Source: Candidatus Bathyarchaeota archaeon
GTDB lineage: Archaea; Thermoproteota; Bathyarchaeia; 40CM-2-53-6
Assembly: GCA_963733055.1 (NCBI GenBank)
Contig: CAVTBR010000001.1
Coordinates: 352,001 to 416,000 of the forward strand
DNA length: 64,000 nucleotides
Direction: 5' to 3'
Below are positions 2,873 to 11,169 of the stretch, piece after piece. The position numbers and the translations under genes were made by a program. Under the pieces are notes generated by a model, which did not search any database, was not told the origin of the DNA, and worked only from the letters and a program-made list of their open reading frames with translations. Within the stretch, counting starts at the first letter, position 1. Each line of letters opens with the position of its first letter.

Positions 2873-3190
2873 ATGCAGCGAATAAGCACATCCCTTCTGG
2901 CAACCGCCAGGCAACAAGTATTCACGGCCGTAGCCATGGGCGTTGAAATGGCCTTGACCTACGGCGCCATGCCAGTATTCATTAGAGAACTCTCCCCGAC
3001 CGTCTACACGACAATCGTTTTCGTCATAGGCGGCGGAGTTGGGTTCGTAGCAACACATCTCACCAAAACCATAGTGAAGTCCCAACGCGTATGCTTCCTA
3101 AACTCAATCAAAGAAGAGAAAGTTCGCGGAGCCATATACCTCAGCATCCTTACAGCAATCGCCACGGTCGCAATGTTCCTTCACCTGTAA
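2873..3190 (+). CDS. Small hypothetical membrane protein (about 3 TM)
   Basis: Three hydrophobic segments; GGAG and TATA box upstream. Confidence 0.65.
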   Translation: MQRISTSLLATARQQVFTAVAMGVEMALTYGAMPVFIRELSPTVYTTIVFVIGGGVGFVATHLTKTIVKSQRVCFLNSIKEEKVRGAIYLSILTAIATVAMFLHL

Positions 3191-3296
3191 CCAGAACGCT
3201 CCATCCGGCTCAATGGAACGACTCATTGAACCCGAAAGCATTACATTTGCGTTGAGGTCGGCTGTATGCAACTCTCGATTACACTGGCGTTACAGC

Positions 3297-4427
3297 ATGG
3301 CCCAACAGAACCCAAGGAAATGTCCGCAATGTGGCACCATCGCCCGACAAAGGCAGACGTATTGCGGAGGATGTGGCCTACGCCTCACCATATGCTCGAT
3401 CTGTAACACCATTAATCTAGCGTCCTCAGAGTTCTGTCATAGCTGTGGCAAGCCGCTTAAGCTCCGAGGGCTCGCCCCGGAGGAGGCTGAAGGCTCCTTG
3501 CCCTCCGTCGGTGTGGAGAGCAGACAGATCAAGCAACCGAGTAAGCCTGGACCAGCAATAAGTGTCCGTATGCTCGAAACGGAATCATCTGACATGGATG
3601 ATCGTGTGCTCAAGTATTTGGAGGATCACCATGGAGGGATATCGATACGTAGGACGTCTACTGATCTGAACGTAACTTCAGAGCAACTAATCGAGTCACT
3701 CACTCGGTTACAGAAGAAGGGGCTCATCCAGAAGGAAGAAACAGCCTTCGTGGAACGGATGCATAACTGCCACAAGTGTAACAAGACGATAGGAGTAGAC
3801 GAACCCTACTGCCGCTACTGCGGCGCGAAACAGGTATTGATTGAGGAGTTGGAGCCTCAGGCAATTCTTGACCCGCGCACGATGAAGGTGGCGTTGACCA
3901 TGCTCAACCGGGTGGTAGAAGCGAAAGACCATCCAGAATACTCTGTCGTAGACGAGTTGACCACGACCATCGGCGCGGTTGCCCTTGGCGGGGAGAAACC
4001 TCAGGATGCACAGGAACTGTCCTTTCAGGACCAACTCAGGCTGCTAACTCTCGTCTTCGAATATTCGCGCGACAAAGTGATCTACAAGGGCGAATCATTC
4101 GGTGAATACGTCAGGTGGCCTTGGGAAACCATGAAAACCGGCGGCGACTGCGACTGCAAAGTAGTTCTATTGGCTTCCATGCTGGCCAGCCTCGCGTTTC
4201 GAAGAATGCATTTCCTCATACTTCCACCGGGAACGTATATGGACGCGACCAAGCATGAGAACCAAAAACTGCCGGGTCATGCCTTGCTTGAGGTCGAGCT
4301 AACAGACGGCGGAAAAAGAATTCCACTGCGTCTGGATCCGTCTTGCGTGGACTGTGATGTGGATGATATTTCGCGATCGATGAAACCGTTTCTGTCGAGT
4401 TTCTATCGGATCCCAATAATCCCTTGA
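3297..4427 (+). CDS. Zinc-ribbon / winged-helix / transglutaminase-like (Cys-His-Asp) multidomain protein
   Basis: Six CxxC pairs; wH segment VLKYLEDHHGGISI..LTRLQKKGLI; GGDCDCKVVLLASML..GHALLEV..RLDPS triad pattern; start placed at MAQQ (ORF open from 3213). Confidence 0.75.
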   Translation: MAQQNPRKCPQCGTIARQRQTYCGGCGLRLTICSICNTINLASSEFCHSCGKPLKLRGLAPEEAEGSLPSVGVESRQIKQPSKPGPAISVRMLETESSDMDDRVLKYLEDHHGGISIRRTSTDLNVTSEQLIESLTRLQKKGLIQKEETAFVERMHNCHKCNKTIGVDEPYCRYCGAKQVLIEELEPQAILDPRTMKVALTMLNRVVEAKDHPEYSVVDELTTTIGAVALGGEKPQDAQELSFQDQLRLLTLVFEYSRDKVIYKGESFGEYVRWPWETMKTGGDCDCKVVLLASMLASLAFRRMHFLILPPGTYMDATKHENQKLPGHALLEVELTDGGKRIPLRLDPSCVDCDVDDISRSMKPFLSSFYRIPIIP

Positions 4428-4504
4428 AAGCAAACGGTACCGTAGGAGTAGGGGCTAGTCAAGAGCGACTTGCTCAGGGCGTAATTTGACTCTCTTACCC
4501 GTGT

Positions 4505-4861
4505 TCATTTTTTTCTGAGTCGCGACGCGATTTCTGGCGGTAGTGTTTCCCAATCGATTTGCCAGATGTAGCGCGCGGTTTCCTTTGTGTCTTCGTTGAA
4601 ATCTCGTTTTACGATGCCTTCCTCTTCCATGCGGTTGAGGTATTCGCTGATTACGCTTCGGCTTATGCCCAAGTGGTCTGCTAATTTCTCGGTTCCAGCT
4701 TTTCCTCCCAGCTCGGTCATCCCCAGTAGGGTTCTGTACCAGGCTATCCGAATTCTGGGTTGCTTACTCTCAGCGATGGTCTGTTCTAGTTTACCTATAC
4801 GTTGATCGATCTTTGAGAATCTTGATTCGAGCCATTTCTTTAGGTCATCGTCAGCGGTCAT
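4505..4861 (-). CDS. Winged-helix transcriptional regulator with N-terminal coiled coil
   Basis: TEKLADHLGISRSVISEYLNRMEEEGIV HTH plus wing (ARYIW); GGAGAGGAG precedes ATG at 4861. Confidence 0.8.
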   Translation of the reverse strand: MTADDDLKKWLESRFSKIDQRIGKLEQTIAESKQPRIRIAWYRTLLGMTELGGKAGTEKLADHLGISRSVISEYLNRMEEEGIVKRDFNEDTKETARYIWQIDWETLPPEIASRLRKK

Positions 4862-4961
4862 TGGTCTCCTCTCCATCTAGGATGCGCACTTCGAGTGCTG
4901 TGACTCGTTCGTCTATTTGCGTCATCCTTCTTCTGAGCCAGTTCGACAGTTCCTTGTTCAT
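4851..4961 (-). CDS. 36-aa micro-ORF paralogous to the N-terminus of the downstream wHTH regulator (not in ORF track)
   Basis: MNKELSNWLRRRMTQIDERVTALEVRILDGEETNDR; TTTTTAAA about 30 nt upstream; its stop overlaps the start of the wHTH gene. Confidence 0.65.
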   Translation of the reverse strand: MNKELSNWLRRRMTQIDERVTALEVRILDGEETNDR

Positions 4962-4978
4962 TCGTCGTCGGCAGTGTT

Positions 4979-5069
4979 GTGTCTAGGCGTGTTTAAAAAT
5001 GTATCGTCACTTTCGAAAGCCATATAAACTGATGTGTACATTAACGTAGATACACGTATCGACAGGTGA
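4979..5069. promoter_or_regulatory. Divergent promoter region with GTRTCKA-like repeats
   Basis: GTGTCTA 4979, GTGTTTA 4989, GTATCGT 5001, TAGATAC 5047, GTATCGA 5056; minus-strand TATA 4992-4999; plus-strand GAAAG-CCATATAAA about 5015-5028; SD AGGTGA at 5064. Confidence 0.55.
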
Positions 5070-5076
5070 AACAAAA

Positions 5077-5376
5077 ATGGACGCAGTCATTATCGTCTTC
5101 GTTATGGCCACAGGCTTCGTAGCTGTAACTGTTGTTCTACCAATCATATTCTGGTTCACACAAACCAACACCTTCAACCCAACCCCCATACGCCCAATTG
5201 AATACCCAAACAATTCCTACTTCCAAACCAAACCAATCCCAACACCGCAACCTCGACCGACCGCATACACGAGTCAAGCCAACATTCAGAACCATCAGGG
5301 CTTTCAGATCAAGGCGCTGCCTCCCTATCCCGCCGTGAAACGTTCACCGAATAGGAGAATGTTAGTAGCATCTTAA
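5077..5376 (+). CDS. Single-pass membrane protein with P/T/Q/N-rich tail
   Basis: N-terminal hydrophobic helix; good SD and promoter. Confidence 0.6.
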   Translation: MDAVIIVFVMATGFVAVTVVLPIIFWFTQTNTFNPTPIRPIEYPNNSYFQTKPIPTPQPRPTAYTSQANIQNHQGFQIKALPPYPAVKRSPNRRMLVAS

Positions 5377-5396
5377 ACCCGGATCAAGATTCTAGA

Positions 5397-5951
5397 TCAA
5401 CCAGAACCATCTTTATCATTTTGCGCCAAGGGATGCCCGCACTTAGCGCAGAAGGACCTGGCGAAGGGCGGGTTACGAAACCCGCACTCTCTACAAATCA
5501 ATCCTCTTGGAGTTGGCGAGTGCACTCTTGGAATGATGAAGCTTGCAATCGCACCTAGAAGCAGAACAACGGCCAATGATTCCCCCCAAATGTTTCCAAG
5601 CAGTGAGATTGTTTGAGTTGAAACCTGGGTGACGGCGGACGTGATGGTCTGCGTCAAAGTGCCATTAAGAGTAGTGGTGTAGCTCCCTGTGAGAGTTGTC
5701 ACTGAAATCTGTGTCAGAGTTTGAGTCCCGTAAATAGTCGAGTTCAGAGTCTGGGTAGTAGTCGAGTAGTTTACTGCCGGATTCGATATTGTCGTAAGAA
5801 TTGTATTAGTCGAGAATGCCGTTACGACCTGCGTCGAGCTCGAGAGGTAAGTCGACTGAGCCGTTGAGAAATGGATGGATGAATAGAATCCAACAGCGCA
5901 GAAGAACAGAATAAACATAATCGGCCGTAAGTATTTTGATAGTCTAACCAC
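5397..5951 (-). CDS. Membrane protein: signal peptide, S/T-rich stalk, TM helix, C-terminal zinc ribbon
   Basis: CRECG..CAKCG after the TM helix. Confidence 0.75.
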   Translation of the reverse strand: MVRLSKYLRPIMFILFFCAVGFYSSIHFSTAQSTYLSSSTQVVTAFSTNTILTTISNPAVNYSTTTQTLNSTIYGTQTLTQISVTTLTGSYTTTLNGTLTQTITSAVTQVSTQTISLLGNIWGESLAVVLLLGAIASFIIPRVHSPTPRGLICRECGFRNPPFARSFCAKCGHPLAQNDKDGSG

Positions 5952-5956
5952 TTAGA

Positions 5957-7603
5957 TCAAGTCCTCTTCAGCGGTTCGCCGCAGCCGACACAATACTTTC
6001 CTGGATAGGAATTCTTGAACCCGCAACTAGGGCATAAAACTGCTCCGCGCTTCGGAGATCGTTTTATCACATTAACCCCGATAAACAGTGAGGCGATGAG
6101 GAGAATGGCCGCGAGTCCAAGTTCAACAGTAGGGTCCACCACGACCCAGGTAATCGAAGTAGTAGTTGAAGTGACAGTCGAGAGTTGCGTGGCCGCGTAG
6201 TATTGAGACTGCGTCTCTATTGTTCCGCTTGTCGAGAACAGAACGGTCGTCGTCTGCGTATTAGGGACCTGCGTCGTTGATTCCGTGATTATAGTAGCTG
6301 TCTGTGTTGCTGTGTTTGCGATTATGGAGGTACTTGTCACAGGCGTTGTTACCACGTAAGTACTCGTGGTAGTTGTTTTGCTCGTAATCGTGGTCTCCGC
6401 GAATGTCACTTGGAAACTTACCGGAAGATTGGGCATGGTGAAGGCGCAAGTGTTGAACCCTGATTGAGGACCACAAGTGACTCCACTCGTTAGATGATAA
6501 CCCGAAACCACCCATCCCGGGGATGGGGTAGACGTGATCGTGACCATCGACCCGACAACCACTTGGCAGCCCGAGGGGCAATAGGGCGAGACTGCACCTT
6601 GCCCGGTGTAGGTCGTTGTGAGGAGCTGGGTTTCGAAGAAGTTCGCGTTCGCTGAAACCTGATTGTTGGGCATCGTGAACGTGCAAGGGTTTGAACTGAG
6701 CCCACCTGAGCAGGTAACCCCTGTCATGTTCCAGCCAGAGAACGTCCATCCGGGGCCGGGAATAGCGGTTACATTCACTGGTTCCCCTACAGATTGCACG
6801 CAGCCGGATGGGCAAGATGGAGAGACGGATCCTTGTCCGACATATGTGGTCGTGAGGATTGGCGACGCTTGAAGAATGGTTAATGAAATCCTTGAGGATT
6901 GTTGATCGTTAGTCAGATCCTTAAGGTAGAACTGTTGTTGGCCAGGCGGAACCTTTGAAGTCACAAGCATTGAACCCGAAACGTCTCCCTGGGCGTCAGC
7001 TGAGGCTTGGTTCTGGCATGTAGCCGTGCCGTCGTTGTTGGTTGTCAAGCAGGATGCTGCTATGTCGGTCGGAGGAAATCCTGATCCGCGAAACTGAATC
7101 GATTCACCTTGTGAGTAGGAGGTTTTGTCTGTCCAATCAACGTGCAGTTTCGGGCACGGACCTTGTGGGCAACTGATCGTAACGGAGAGTGAAGGAGCTT
7201 GACGCGTTAGTCCTTGAGCCGTGCCAGTAACGGTGATAGTATAGGTTTTGCCGGGTGGGGCTGCCAGGGCGTTGACGACGAGGGTTGTGATGAAGCTGGG
7301 ATTTCCTGAGGGTTGAGCGAAATATGCTGATACCTCGCCGTCTTGCGGTGAAATCTCCGAGGTTAAATTCACAGTTTGAGAGGATCCGGAAACTAATACA
7401 ACAGTTACCTGATCGTACCCTGAACGGTTCGGGGCTACCGAAAGTGAGTACCCACCTAGACTCACGCTGAAATCGAACCCCGCCTGAGCGCTAGCCGCTT
7501 CGTAGGCGTTGACCGCGACCGAAAGGATAGTGAGCGCCAGGAAAACCATCAGAAGGGTTCGGGTCGCGCGATTGATCAAATGCATTTTCCTCGGACGTTG
7601 CAT
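5957..7603 (-). CDS. Cell-surface protein: Ig-like domains, two Cys-rich InlB-B-like repeats, T-rich stalk, TM, C-terminal zinc ribbon
   Basis: Repeated LTTTYxGQGxVSPxCPSGC..VTxxPxPGW..CxFTMPN; CPSCG..CVGCG at the C-terminus. Confidence 0.75.
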   Translation of the reverse strand: MQRPRKMHLINRATRTLLMVFLALTILSVAVNAYEAASAQAGFDFSVSLGGYSLSVAPNRSGYDQVTVVLVSGSSQTVNLTSEISPQDGEVSAYFAQPSGNPSFITTLVVNALAAPPGKTYTITVTGTAQGLTRQAPSLSVTISCPQGPCPKLHVDWTDKTSYSQGESIQFRGSGFPPTDIAASCLTTNNDGTATCQNQASADAQGDVSGSMLVTSKVPPGQQQFYLKDLTNDQQSSRISLTILQASPILTTTYVGQGSVSPSCPSGCVQSVGEPVNVTAIPGPGWTFSGWNMTGVTCSGGLSSNPCTFTMPNNQVSANANFFETQLLTTTYTGQGAVSPYCPSGCQVVVGSMVTITSTPSPGWVVSGYHLTSGVTCGPQSGFNTCAFTMPNLPVSFQVTFAETTITSKTTTTSTYVVTTPVTSTSIIANTATQTATIITESTTQVPNTQTTTVLFSTSGTIETQSQYYAATQLSTVTSTTTSITWVVVDPTVELGLAAILLIASLFIGVNVIKRSPKRGAVLCPSCGFKNSYPGKYCVGCGEPLKRT

Positions 7604-10710: not shown

Positions 10711-11169
10711 TTACAGAGTCACCGCGCACGATCGCGGCTTACCGAACTGGAAGTAGATAGACTCCAACAGACGGATCAAGTATTGGCCATTAGCGCCGTA
10801 CTTTGGTCCAAGTAGGTGACCGTTACATTTACAATCGCTTGCTCCGATTTTCAACAAGACGGGAGAAATATCCAATTCCTTTGAGATTGATCGATTGACT
10901 CTACACTCTAGATGGTCATCAGAGATAACGTATACGGCACCTGTGACGTTGCAATCGGCTTGTGAGGTGAGGTAATCTACATGCCACTTCAGTCTCTTTT
11001 GGTGCCTCATGTGTCTCTCAAGCCTCCCCTCGAGCGAAACGGCGCCGCGTCCCAACGCTGACCCTGTATAGAGATAGTGCCCCTTCCGCAATTTGGCCTG
11101 TCCCAGTTTACCGAACGTTGTAACGCCTGTGTGTTTGCAGCGTACGACGATTGTGTAGGTTCCCTTCAT
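10711..11169 (-). CDS. DUF123 / GIY-YIG (Uri) family endonuclease-like protein
   Basis: KGTY..YLYTGSA..RH..KWHVDYL..GASDCKCNGHL. Confidence 0.85.
   Translation of the reverse strand: MKGTYTIVVRCKHTGVTTFGKLGQAKLRKGHYLYTGSALGRGAVSLEGRLERHMRHQKRLKWHVDYLTSQADCNVTGAVYVISDDHLECRVNRSISKELDISPVLLKIGASDCKCNGHLLGPKYGANGQYLIRLLESIYFQFGKPRSCAVTL

Follow-up and report, generated by a model that had tools for sequence, protein, structure and literature searches.

What is the role of a short open reading frame (ORF) whose product resembles one part of the transcription factor encoded directly downstream of it? The question is raised by a locus of Candidatus Bathyarchaeota archaeon (assembly GCA_963733055.1), which we analyzed within a 64,000-nucleotide stretch of contig CAVTBR010000001.1 (positions 352,001 to 416,000 of the forward strand; hereafter the window, in whose numbering all coordinates are given). 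The small ORF precedes and overlaps the gene of a winged helix-turn-helix (wHTH) regulator, and an earlier sequence-only reading of the window had proposed that it copies just the N-terminal helix of this regulator, without the DNA-binding part, and acts in the manner of eukaryotic microProteins. We report that the small ORF is an ancient partial paralog of the regulator and a gene under selection, and we tentatively explain its product as an accessory antagonist that would pair with the regulator helix in the way known for SinI.

The small ORF as a paralog of the regulator helix

The translation of the small ORF (4961..4851, minus strand) is MNKELSNWLRRRMTQIDERVTALEVRILDGEETNDR. The ungapped alignment with 10/24 identities from which the proposal started was reproduced by a recount on the two translations, and BLASTP yielded 11/33 identities, again without gaps (E 8e-6 for a single comparison). 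When a profile of 42 distinct small-ORF sequences was aligned with a profile of 14 regulator sequences, hhalign gave a probability of 94.8% (E 5.1e-8) over 28 columns, pairing positions 2–29 of the small protein with positions 4–31 of the regulator. Both comparisons confirm that the copy is limited to the N-terminal helix and lacks the DNA-binding part.

A search of the small-ORF profile against six-frame translations of 59 whole genomes of the taxonomic family matched 25 places. These comprise nine small ORFs that immediately precede the regulator (E 1e-20 to 3e-12), 14 regulator N-terminal helices (E 1e-7 to 6e-4), one decayed copy of the small ORF, and one marginal match (E 0.0097). Within its own genome (2.88 Mb), the peptide matches solely itself and the regulator N-terminus. 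The confinement of profile matches to small ORFs and regulator helices indicates a specific relationship rather than a generic resemblance of coiled coils. Throughout the 59 genomes, the small ORF was never found apart from the regulator.

Positions W8, L9, R12, M13, I16, R19, and L23, which are invariant or at least 90% conserved in the small protein, match invariant W, L, R, F, I, R, and L of the regulator. Conservation in both classes covers D/E4, L5, W8, L9, R12, I16, D/E17, R19, [VIL]20, L23, and [ILV]27, and these shared positions make a hydrophobic stripe of the a/d type flanked by arginines and acidic residues. Other positions are class-specific. Charge reversals are seen among them, at position 10 (K/R in the small proteins, E/D in the regulators), position 15 (Q/E and K, respectively), and position 22 (E/D and K/E/R). 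Position 13 is M in the former class and F in the latter, and position 26 is R as opposed to S/T/A.

The regulator belongs to the wHTH (MarR/ArsR-like) superfamily by virtue of domain scores above the curated Pfam thresholds (HTH_24, 28.9 bits with a cut-off of 21.9; HTH_5, 28.1 bits with a cut-off of 22), and its public copies are labeled [quoted passage not shown]. In its AlphaFold2 (AF2) model, with a predicted local distance difference test (pLDDT) score of 84.2, one long helix of residues 3–50 runs into the wHTH domain, placed by Pfam and AF2 at residues ~41–100, and a short C-terminal helix follows. Foldseek returned generic wHTH matches only (MarR family, ArsR/CzrA, TFE-alpha, AbfR2 6cmv), at E ~4e-4 to 3e-3 and template modeling (TM) scores up to 0.55. 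The small protein is modeled as a single helix of residues 3–34 (pLDDT 88.1), i.e., exactly that part of the regulator helix which protrudes from the globular domain in the AF2 models. No family was assigned to it in Pfam, PHROGs, or NCBIfam; the only Pfam match in a scan at E<=1 was a weak one to PspB (E 0.15). ESM Atlas features gave no lead either, the best score (0.88, to unnamed clusters) being under the useful range. Apart from weak generic HTH matches, PHROGs and NCBIfam searches with the small ORF and its neighbors revealed no mobile or viral context.

Selection on the small ORF

Selection was assessed with a codon model for 25 ungapped codons (W-4 to W+20) of 39 distinct full-length copies on a fixed, pruned regulator tree; of the 41 distinct copies, L040 and L056/L058 were left out for their internal deletions. 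In its own frame, the small ORF has an omega (the ratio of non-synonymous to synonymous rates) of 0.183, with a log-likelihood (lnL) of -1521.64 and no stop codon in any of the 39 copies. Sense frames +1 and +2 give omega values of 1.49 and 2.79, with 111 and 27 stops masked, and on the antisense strand the values for the three frames are 1.09, 0.37, and 3.67, with 47, 6, and 46 stops masked. With omega fixed at 1, the best of five kappa values (1.5–4) reached a lnL of -1614.76, so that 2dlnL = 186. Hence, neutral evolution, which the sequence-only reading had named as an outcome that would count against its proposal, is rejected, and the small ORF is a real gene rather than duplication debris.

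Close pairs, which are free of saturation at synonymous sites, agree with this result and have more synonymous than non-synonymous differences, namely 6:4 for L001/L005, 4:1 for L005/L006, 4:0 for L012/L013, and 7:4 for L018/L019. In the same loci, omega is 0.050 for the regulator helix and 0.032 for the rest of the regulator. Judged by these codon estimates, selection acts on the peptide as a protein, with a stringency some 3.5-fold below that on the parent helix.

Two other sources of the signal were considered. Selection on an antisense ORF (4813..4986, plus strand) was rejected, as the antisense frames contain 6–47 stops and their omega ranges from 0.37 to 3.67; a value of 0.37 in an antisense frame is the usual mirror of selection in the sense frame. 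A sequence-independent leader or upstream ORF does not agree with an omega of 0.183 in frame as compared with 1.49 and 2.79 in the shifted frames.

Distribution, loss, and origin

The regulator is present in 13 of the 59 genomes of its family, namely in 9/22 genomes of the window's genus, 3/10 of a second genus, and 0/22 of a third; among 401 genomes sampled from the class, it was again found in 13. Outgroup regulators (58–61% identity, P0063–P0066) occur in none of these 401 genomes. A scan of metagenomes detected 129 relatives and contributed the best 80 of them. The resulting collection comprises 94 loci with 82 distinct regulator sequences, and the 91 loci with at least 110 nt of upstream DNA were classified. 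The full helix motif is encoded upstream of the regulator in 50 of them, the N-terminal half of the motif only in eight, and no motif in 33. The classification was amended for L085 (a full copy with the stop lost), L024 (an in-frame deletion of two codons), and L071 (a premature stop after 13 codons). The two-gene arrangement, which the earlier reading had suggested looking for in related genomes, is thus conserved in two genera as well as in many lineages represented by metagenomes. Absence or disruption in relatives, listed beforehand as evidence to the contrary, was encountered in part, since the small ORF is kept in 50 of the 91 loci and shortened or absent in 41; it is therefore dispensable.

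On the regulator tree, the small ORF changed state at least 14 times if three states are distinguished, and at least 11 times between full and not full when 81 rows are considered. One clade of 16 rows contains degenerate versions only, and a clade of 21 rows has undergone many independent shortenings, e.g., to MISGEEDEW or MNPQLARGLNGERAQW. Permission of the loss by gain of a Shine-Dalgarno (SD) motif in front of the regulator is not supported, as the SD-like core is present in 37/50 full-motif and 20/33 no-motif loci.

Public gene calls clustered at 50% identity contain 21 representatives with a single matching stretch, which are 30–106 aa long and all carry the motif; the other 14 of 35 public matches are long proteins with several matching stretches and were taken to be repetitive coiled coils.

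Full copies are found in every deep clade of the regulator tree, and hence the module is ancestral to the sampled family. Between lineages with saturated synonymous sites, the motif is still 36–40% identical. In nucleotides, the identity of the small ORF to the helix-coding segment of its own regulator is 0.499, practically the same as with regulators of other loci (0.494), and both values exceed that of a control segment (0.27). This points to one old duplication without gene conversion; gene conversion and recent duplication are rejected by the equality of the two values. The earlier statement that the DNA has diverged is therefore right only in part, as half of the positions are still identical.

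Operon structure and putative operator sites

The two genes appear to form a two-cistron operon on one conserved TATA promoter, co-transcription being suggested by the single TATA box; a search for RNA sequencing runs for positions 4300–5500 listed none. The layout described in the sequence-only reading, with the small ORF some 30 nt below a TATA box and its stop overlapping the wHTH start, was found to be accurate: its ATG follows TTTTTAAA by 30 nt, with no ATG, GTG, or TTG in between, and its TGA (4853–4851) falls 11 nt within the regulator reading frame. The conserved start of the regulator is the ATG at 4861; an alternative in-frame ATG at 4876 is not kept in orthologs. In all full-length copies, the small ORF adjoins the regulator on the same strand, and its stop overlaps or abuts the regulator start. 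Orthologs overlap by +1 to +17 nt, and some lineages have the small ORF in frame +1 relative to the regulator, others in frame +2, by which a programmed frameshift or fusion of the two ORFs is rejected. A check for fusions among 72 homologs of 64–207 aa identified two of fusion length (153 and 155 aa), both upstream miscalls without a second helix.

The promoter core GATACAyTTTTAAAC (<=2 mismatches) was recognized in 87/91 loci, and in 33 of the 48 full-motif loci with a match to it the first ATG lies 29–33 nt after the motif and is the start of the small ORF. With the usual archaeal distance from TATA box to transcription start, the 5′ untranslated region of the small ORF would be shorter than 10 nt. 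A GGAG/GAGG core precedes the regulator in 63/91 loci, and thus the regulator can probably initiate translation by itself.

Table 1. Coordinates of the module and its putative regulatory sites in the window.
Feature	Coordinates	Strand	Description
Small ORF	4851..4961	-	36 codons + TGA; single predicted helix; paralog of regulator residues 4–31
Regulator gene	4505..4861	-	118 aa + stop; long N-terminal helix, wHTH, short C-terminal helix
Cistron overlap	4851..4861	-	11 nt; 3′ end and stop of the small ORF over the regulator start codon, in different frames
SD-like purine-rich GGAGAGGAG	4866..4874	-	4 nt before the regulator ATG, within the tail codons of the small ORF
TATA box TTTTTAAA	4992..4999	-	Promoter of the putative small-ORF/regulator operon; 30 nt before the small-ORF ATG
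Conserved CTAGACAC box	4979..4986	-	Just downstream of the TATA box; from aligned upstream regions
Half-site-like TGACGATAC	5001..5009	-	Abuts the TATA box upstream, at the position of the B recognition element (BRE); direct repeat of the palindrome arm
Near-perfect palindrome GTCGATAC-GT-GTATCTAC	5046..5063		18 bp; presumed operator; 46 nt upstream of the TATA box
Divergent ORF	5077..5376	+	99 aa, hydrophobic N-terminus

The near-perfect palindrome is located between a TATA-like ATATAAA of the divergent gene (5022–5028, plus strand) and the ATG of this gene. Chance would account for 0.05 matches in the window, and the palindrome is the sole such site in the 2.88-Mb genome (<=1 mismatch). With up to four mismatches, it is present in 58 of the 81 loci with enough upstream DNA. 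One of its arms is repeated directly next to the TATA box (GTATCGTCA at 5001–5009 and GTATCGACA at 5056–5064), and this half-site is conserved in orthologs. In basal clades, the box downstream of the TATA box reads TATCGAC and forms with the upstream half-site an inverted repeat around the TATA box (GTCGATA...TATCGAC). The palindrome and the TATA-flanking half-sites are probably the operator set of the regulator. The divergent 99-aa ORF has no match in Pfam, PHROG, or NCBIfam, and its position makes it a likely co-regulated target. The anatomy of the locus is consistent with a dimeric autoregulator that has a local, divergent target.

The gene divergent from the module is always that of a small hydrophobic protein, not the same one everywhere, and none of these has a family match. 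In basal clades (L011/L012), its N-terminus resembles, by eye, another ORF of the window (2873–3190, plus strand) and not the ORF at 5077–5376. A cluster of zinc-ribbon proteins surrounds the module (3213–4427, plus strand; 5397–5951 and 5957–7603, minus strand). One member, of 404 aa, combines a double zinc ribbon with a weak HTH and with a C-terminal domain that contains Cys/His and is transglutaminase-like by eye. Two members are Thr-rich proteins of surface type that end in a membrane helix and a zinc ribbon on the cytoplasmic side, and InlB B-repeat-like domains are present in one of the two. Farther away, a DUF123 protein (10711–11169, minus strand; Pfam E 2.8e-24) adjoins a TrmB-family regulator and an ABC transporter and is unrelated to the module.

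Several loci have lost or damaged more than the small ORF. L007, L045, L053, L054, L062, and L066, none of which has the small ORF, also lack the divergent gene and the palindrome, a coincidence that is non-significant after phylogenetic correction, and in them the regulator directly follows the 3′ end of the zinc-ribbon membrane-protein gene. The regulator of metagenome locus L053 has, in addition, an in-frame TGA (..EEGIVK*DFNED..) and a long branch; the whole module may be in decay there, unless the sequence is in error. Genome G078 has two copies of the module, L018 (C16) and L020 (C9). The second has an intact regulator (75% identity), but a frameshift immediately behind the ATG disrupts its small ORF, and its TATA box and palindrome have degenerated.

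Proposed function and its alternatives

In the proposed mechanism, the small protein would go back to an ancient duplication of part of the second cistron, namely its 5′ end. The regulator probably dimerizes via its long N-terminal amphipathic helix, which protrudes from the DNA-binding domain, and probably binds the 18-bp palindrome as well as the half-sites bracketing its own TATA box, by which it would control both itself and the divergent gene of a small membrane protein. The small protein, having kept the hydrophobic core of the helix and its Arg and Asp/Glu positions and having class-specific surface residues, would most likely pair with the regulator helix in place of a second regulator subunit. 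Such hetero-pairing may titrate or retune the dimer-dependent DNA binding, making the small protein an accessory SinI-like antagonist produced from the same mRNA. A protein that is never separate from the regulator, copies only its protruding helix, keeps the core and salt-bridge positions, and is selected as a protein fits an accessory partner acting in trans best. By analogy with SinI, antagonism through hetero-pairing is the best explanation that we can offer, and we put it forward tentatively. More doubtful is a self-contained titration circuit of archaeal type, in which the freed copy of the dimerization helix, as the first, near-leaderless cistron of an autoregulated mRNA, captures the nascent regulator helix, and the ratio of leaderless to SD-led initiation, or a faster decay of the peptide, sets the amount of DNA-binding dimer.

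Several observations weigh against antagonism. The small ORF is shortened or gone in 41 of 91 loci, and its product evolves faster than the regulator helix (omega 0.18 vs. 0.05). This helix is under the same constraint where the small gene has been lost (0.054) as where it is kept (0.050), and the rest of the regulator has an omega of 0.019 in the former case and 0.030 in the latter (L053, with its in-frame TGA, was excluded from this run); hence, the regulator works without the small protein, and the small gene is an accessory. Raw counts (the palindrome is present in 38/42 full-motif and 15/32 no-motif loci) suggest that loss of the small ORF goes with loss of the palindrome or of the divergent gene, yet in phylogenetically independent pairs the association is not significant (median p 1 for the palindrome). 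Simple reasoning on charges at the e and g positions, done by thought alone, does not clearly favor hetero- over homo-pairing. Finally, no internal promoter is visible in the 108-nt small ORF, and co-transcription and overlapping translation leave little room for controlling an inhibitor separately from the protein that it inhibits. Prediction of a complex of the regulator with the small protein, using both alignments, scored 0.02, which is below the mark and is evidence in neither direction.

The same homology, selection, and linkage would be expected of an auxiliary subunit that binds the regulator without antagonizing it, e.g., in a 2:2 four-helix bundle that stabilizes the dimer, changes the preferred operator spacing, or recruits another factor, and coupled 1:1 production from a single mRNA is more in keeping with a stoichiometric partner than with an inhibitor. 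An obligate subunit is difficult to reconcile with a small ORF that switched between full and not full at least 11 times and with a regulator helix that is equally constrained without the small gene, while an optional enhancer is possible. On balance, we consider the auxiliary subunit unlikely and favor antagonism over it.

It is quite unlikely that the small ORF serves mainly as a leader cistron, whose translation on a near-leaderless mRNA delivers ribosomes to the regulator start by termination and reinitiation and whose product may have no more than a cis effect, of the arrest type or through the nascent chain. The first ATG some 30 nt after the TATA box and the overlap of stop and start in all full-length copies suit such a role, as do the many lineages that lost the helix and yet retain a short ORF with ATG and stop unchanged. 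Examples are MISGEEDEW and MNGELRDWLRKRMTQIDERVNILDGEGGQW, which begin at the first ATG, and MNPQLARGLNGERAQW, which comes from the list of ORFs, the first ATG there opening an earlier ORF of five codons. Preservation of the ATG and stop in shortened versions suggests that in-frame shrinkage maintains the coupling and that translation up to the regulator start is selected for. Coupling requires no conserved amino acids, however, and omega is 0.18 in this frame only; the conserved positions are exactly those of the regulator helix, which a cis-acting arrest peptide has no reason to share; and an SD-like motif in 63/91 loci lets the regulator probably initiate alone. The coupling role and the role of the peptide are not exclusive and likely co-exist.

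A third party may also be involved, in that the regulator helix would bind another protein or form a signal-sensing assembly and the free helix would compete for that partner, or the small protein might work alone as a homo-oligomeric coiled coil. The class-specific residues differ systematically from those of the regulator, and the assignment of the regulator helix as dimer interface rests on analogy with the generic wHTH fold matches, which dimerize via terminal helices. Yet the small ORF stays with the regulator in the 59 genomes, and no conserved candidate partner is encoded beside the module, whose upstream neighbors differ between clades; we regard these possibilities as improbable. A non-functional remnant of tandem duplication, open by chance in this genome, is very improbable, for although many relatives have lost the small ORF or carry it truncated, frameshifted, or interrupted by a stop, and the exact peptide of the window is absent from ~15 billion predicted proteins, neutrality is rejected (2dlnL 186), the 39 copies have no stops compared with 6 to 111 in the other five frames, the motif survived saturation of synonymous sites, and 21 public representatives were called as genes.

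Relation to known systems

The gene of SinI immediately precedes sinR, in part on a bicistronic mRNA, and its product has the helical hooks of SinR and forms a 1:1 complex with it, by which tetramerization and DNA binding of SinR are blocked (PMC3917956). The module described here is similar in the upstream position, in the helix-only paralog, and in the probable shared transcript. The locus has the architecture of the SinI/SinR type, with a small paralog of the presumed oligomerization element directly upstream of the regulator in the same orientation. In contrast to this likeness, there is no sequence relationship, as the small ORF matched no SinI family and its sole Pfam match is the weak one to PspB, while the regulator matched wHTH families instead of an Xre-type HTH with a SinI domain. 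SinR is a tetramer of the HTH_3/Xre type with C-terminal helical hooks, whereas the archaeal regulator is a wHTH protein with an N-terminal helix, and its binding by the small protein is predicted. In addition, sinI has its own regulated promoter, and the module has one promoter and overlapping cistrons.

A microProtein is defined (PMC4807768, PMC7584889) as a small single-domain protein related in sequence to the interaction domain of a larger multidomain transcription factor and devoid of its DNA-binding part, and the product of the small ORF shares with LITTLE ZIPPER, ID, and miP1a/b the relation to such a domain without the DNA-binding part. It is small and has a single domain (36 aa, one helix), and it is related to residues 4–31 of the regulator, for which the helix protruding in the model suggests an interaction role. 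Unlike it, the eukaryotic microProteins are encoded at separate loci or arise as splice forms, occur in plants and animals, and have been shown to sequester their targets, whereas the present case is an overlapping upstream cistron of an archaeon, with predicted sequestration.

The statement in the sequence-only reading that no archaeal example had been described does not hold, because archaeal demi-FFRPs such as DM1 of Pyrococcus sp. OT3 are regulator paralogs reduced to the assembly domain, with no domain for DNA binding (PMC8143865). These are alpha/beta proteins of the RAM type from the Lrp/AsnC family, are usually unlinked, and bind ligands, whereas the small ORF encodes a 36-aa helix of an unrelated wHTH family in the operon of its target; no AsnC/Lrp family was found among the Pfam matches of either protein. 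Demi-FFRPs are also longer, about 75 aa. H-NST of pathogenic E. coli is a coiled-coil-only derivative of H-NS that counteracts it, and interference with oligomerization is the mechanism proposed (PMC6936261). It acts in trans on a nucleoid protein, is not an operon partner of it, and is unrelated in sequence to the small ORF. Genes of H-NST are found on horizontally acquired islands.

Like the Lrs14 and Sta1 proteins, the regulator is a small archaeal wHTH protein with terminal helices, and regulators of this type have about 100–125 aa. Its NCBIfam scores (Sta1, 27.4 bits with a cut-off of 80; Lrs14, 24.8 bits with a cut-off of 90) are far under the curated cut-offs, and hence it is not a member by NCBI criteria.

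As far as the sequences tell, the module is unrelated to SinI, H-NST, demi-FFRPs, and microProteins and differs from all of them in fold, in the overlapping first cistron, and in host. The concept of a paralog reduced to the interaction domain is already known in prokaryotes, archaea included, and a microProtein-like reading of the present sequence is reasonable as a hypothesis. A full-text literature search returned no archaeal protein called a microProtein and no description of this family.

Proteins shorter than 50 aa are mostly missed by annotation, and for few of those in archaea has a target been suggested. In the present case, comparative genomics sufficed to obtain a well-supported new family of small proteins, with 42 distinct sequences and 21 public representatives at 50% identity, along with a specific proposed target (the helix of the neighboring gene product), a predicted operator, and a series of lineages in which the gene is full, shortened, or lost. 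Although the organisms are uncultured, the hypothesis can be tested in vitro with a synthetic peptide. If it is true, the tuning of regulators by interaction-domain-only paralogs, as in plants, animals, and Bacillus, would have arisen in Bathyarchaeia as well, and the small protein would be the first antagonist of microProtein/SinI type to be described both for this lineage and for a wHTH regulator with an N-terminal coiled coil. The module would then illustrate how a modulator can be born when a partial duplicate is placed in a leader position, and its repeated, graded in-frame erosion across lineages would constitute a natural dose series.

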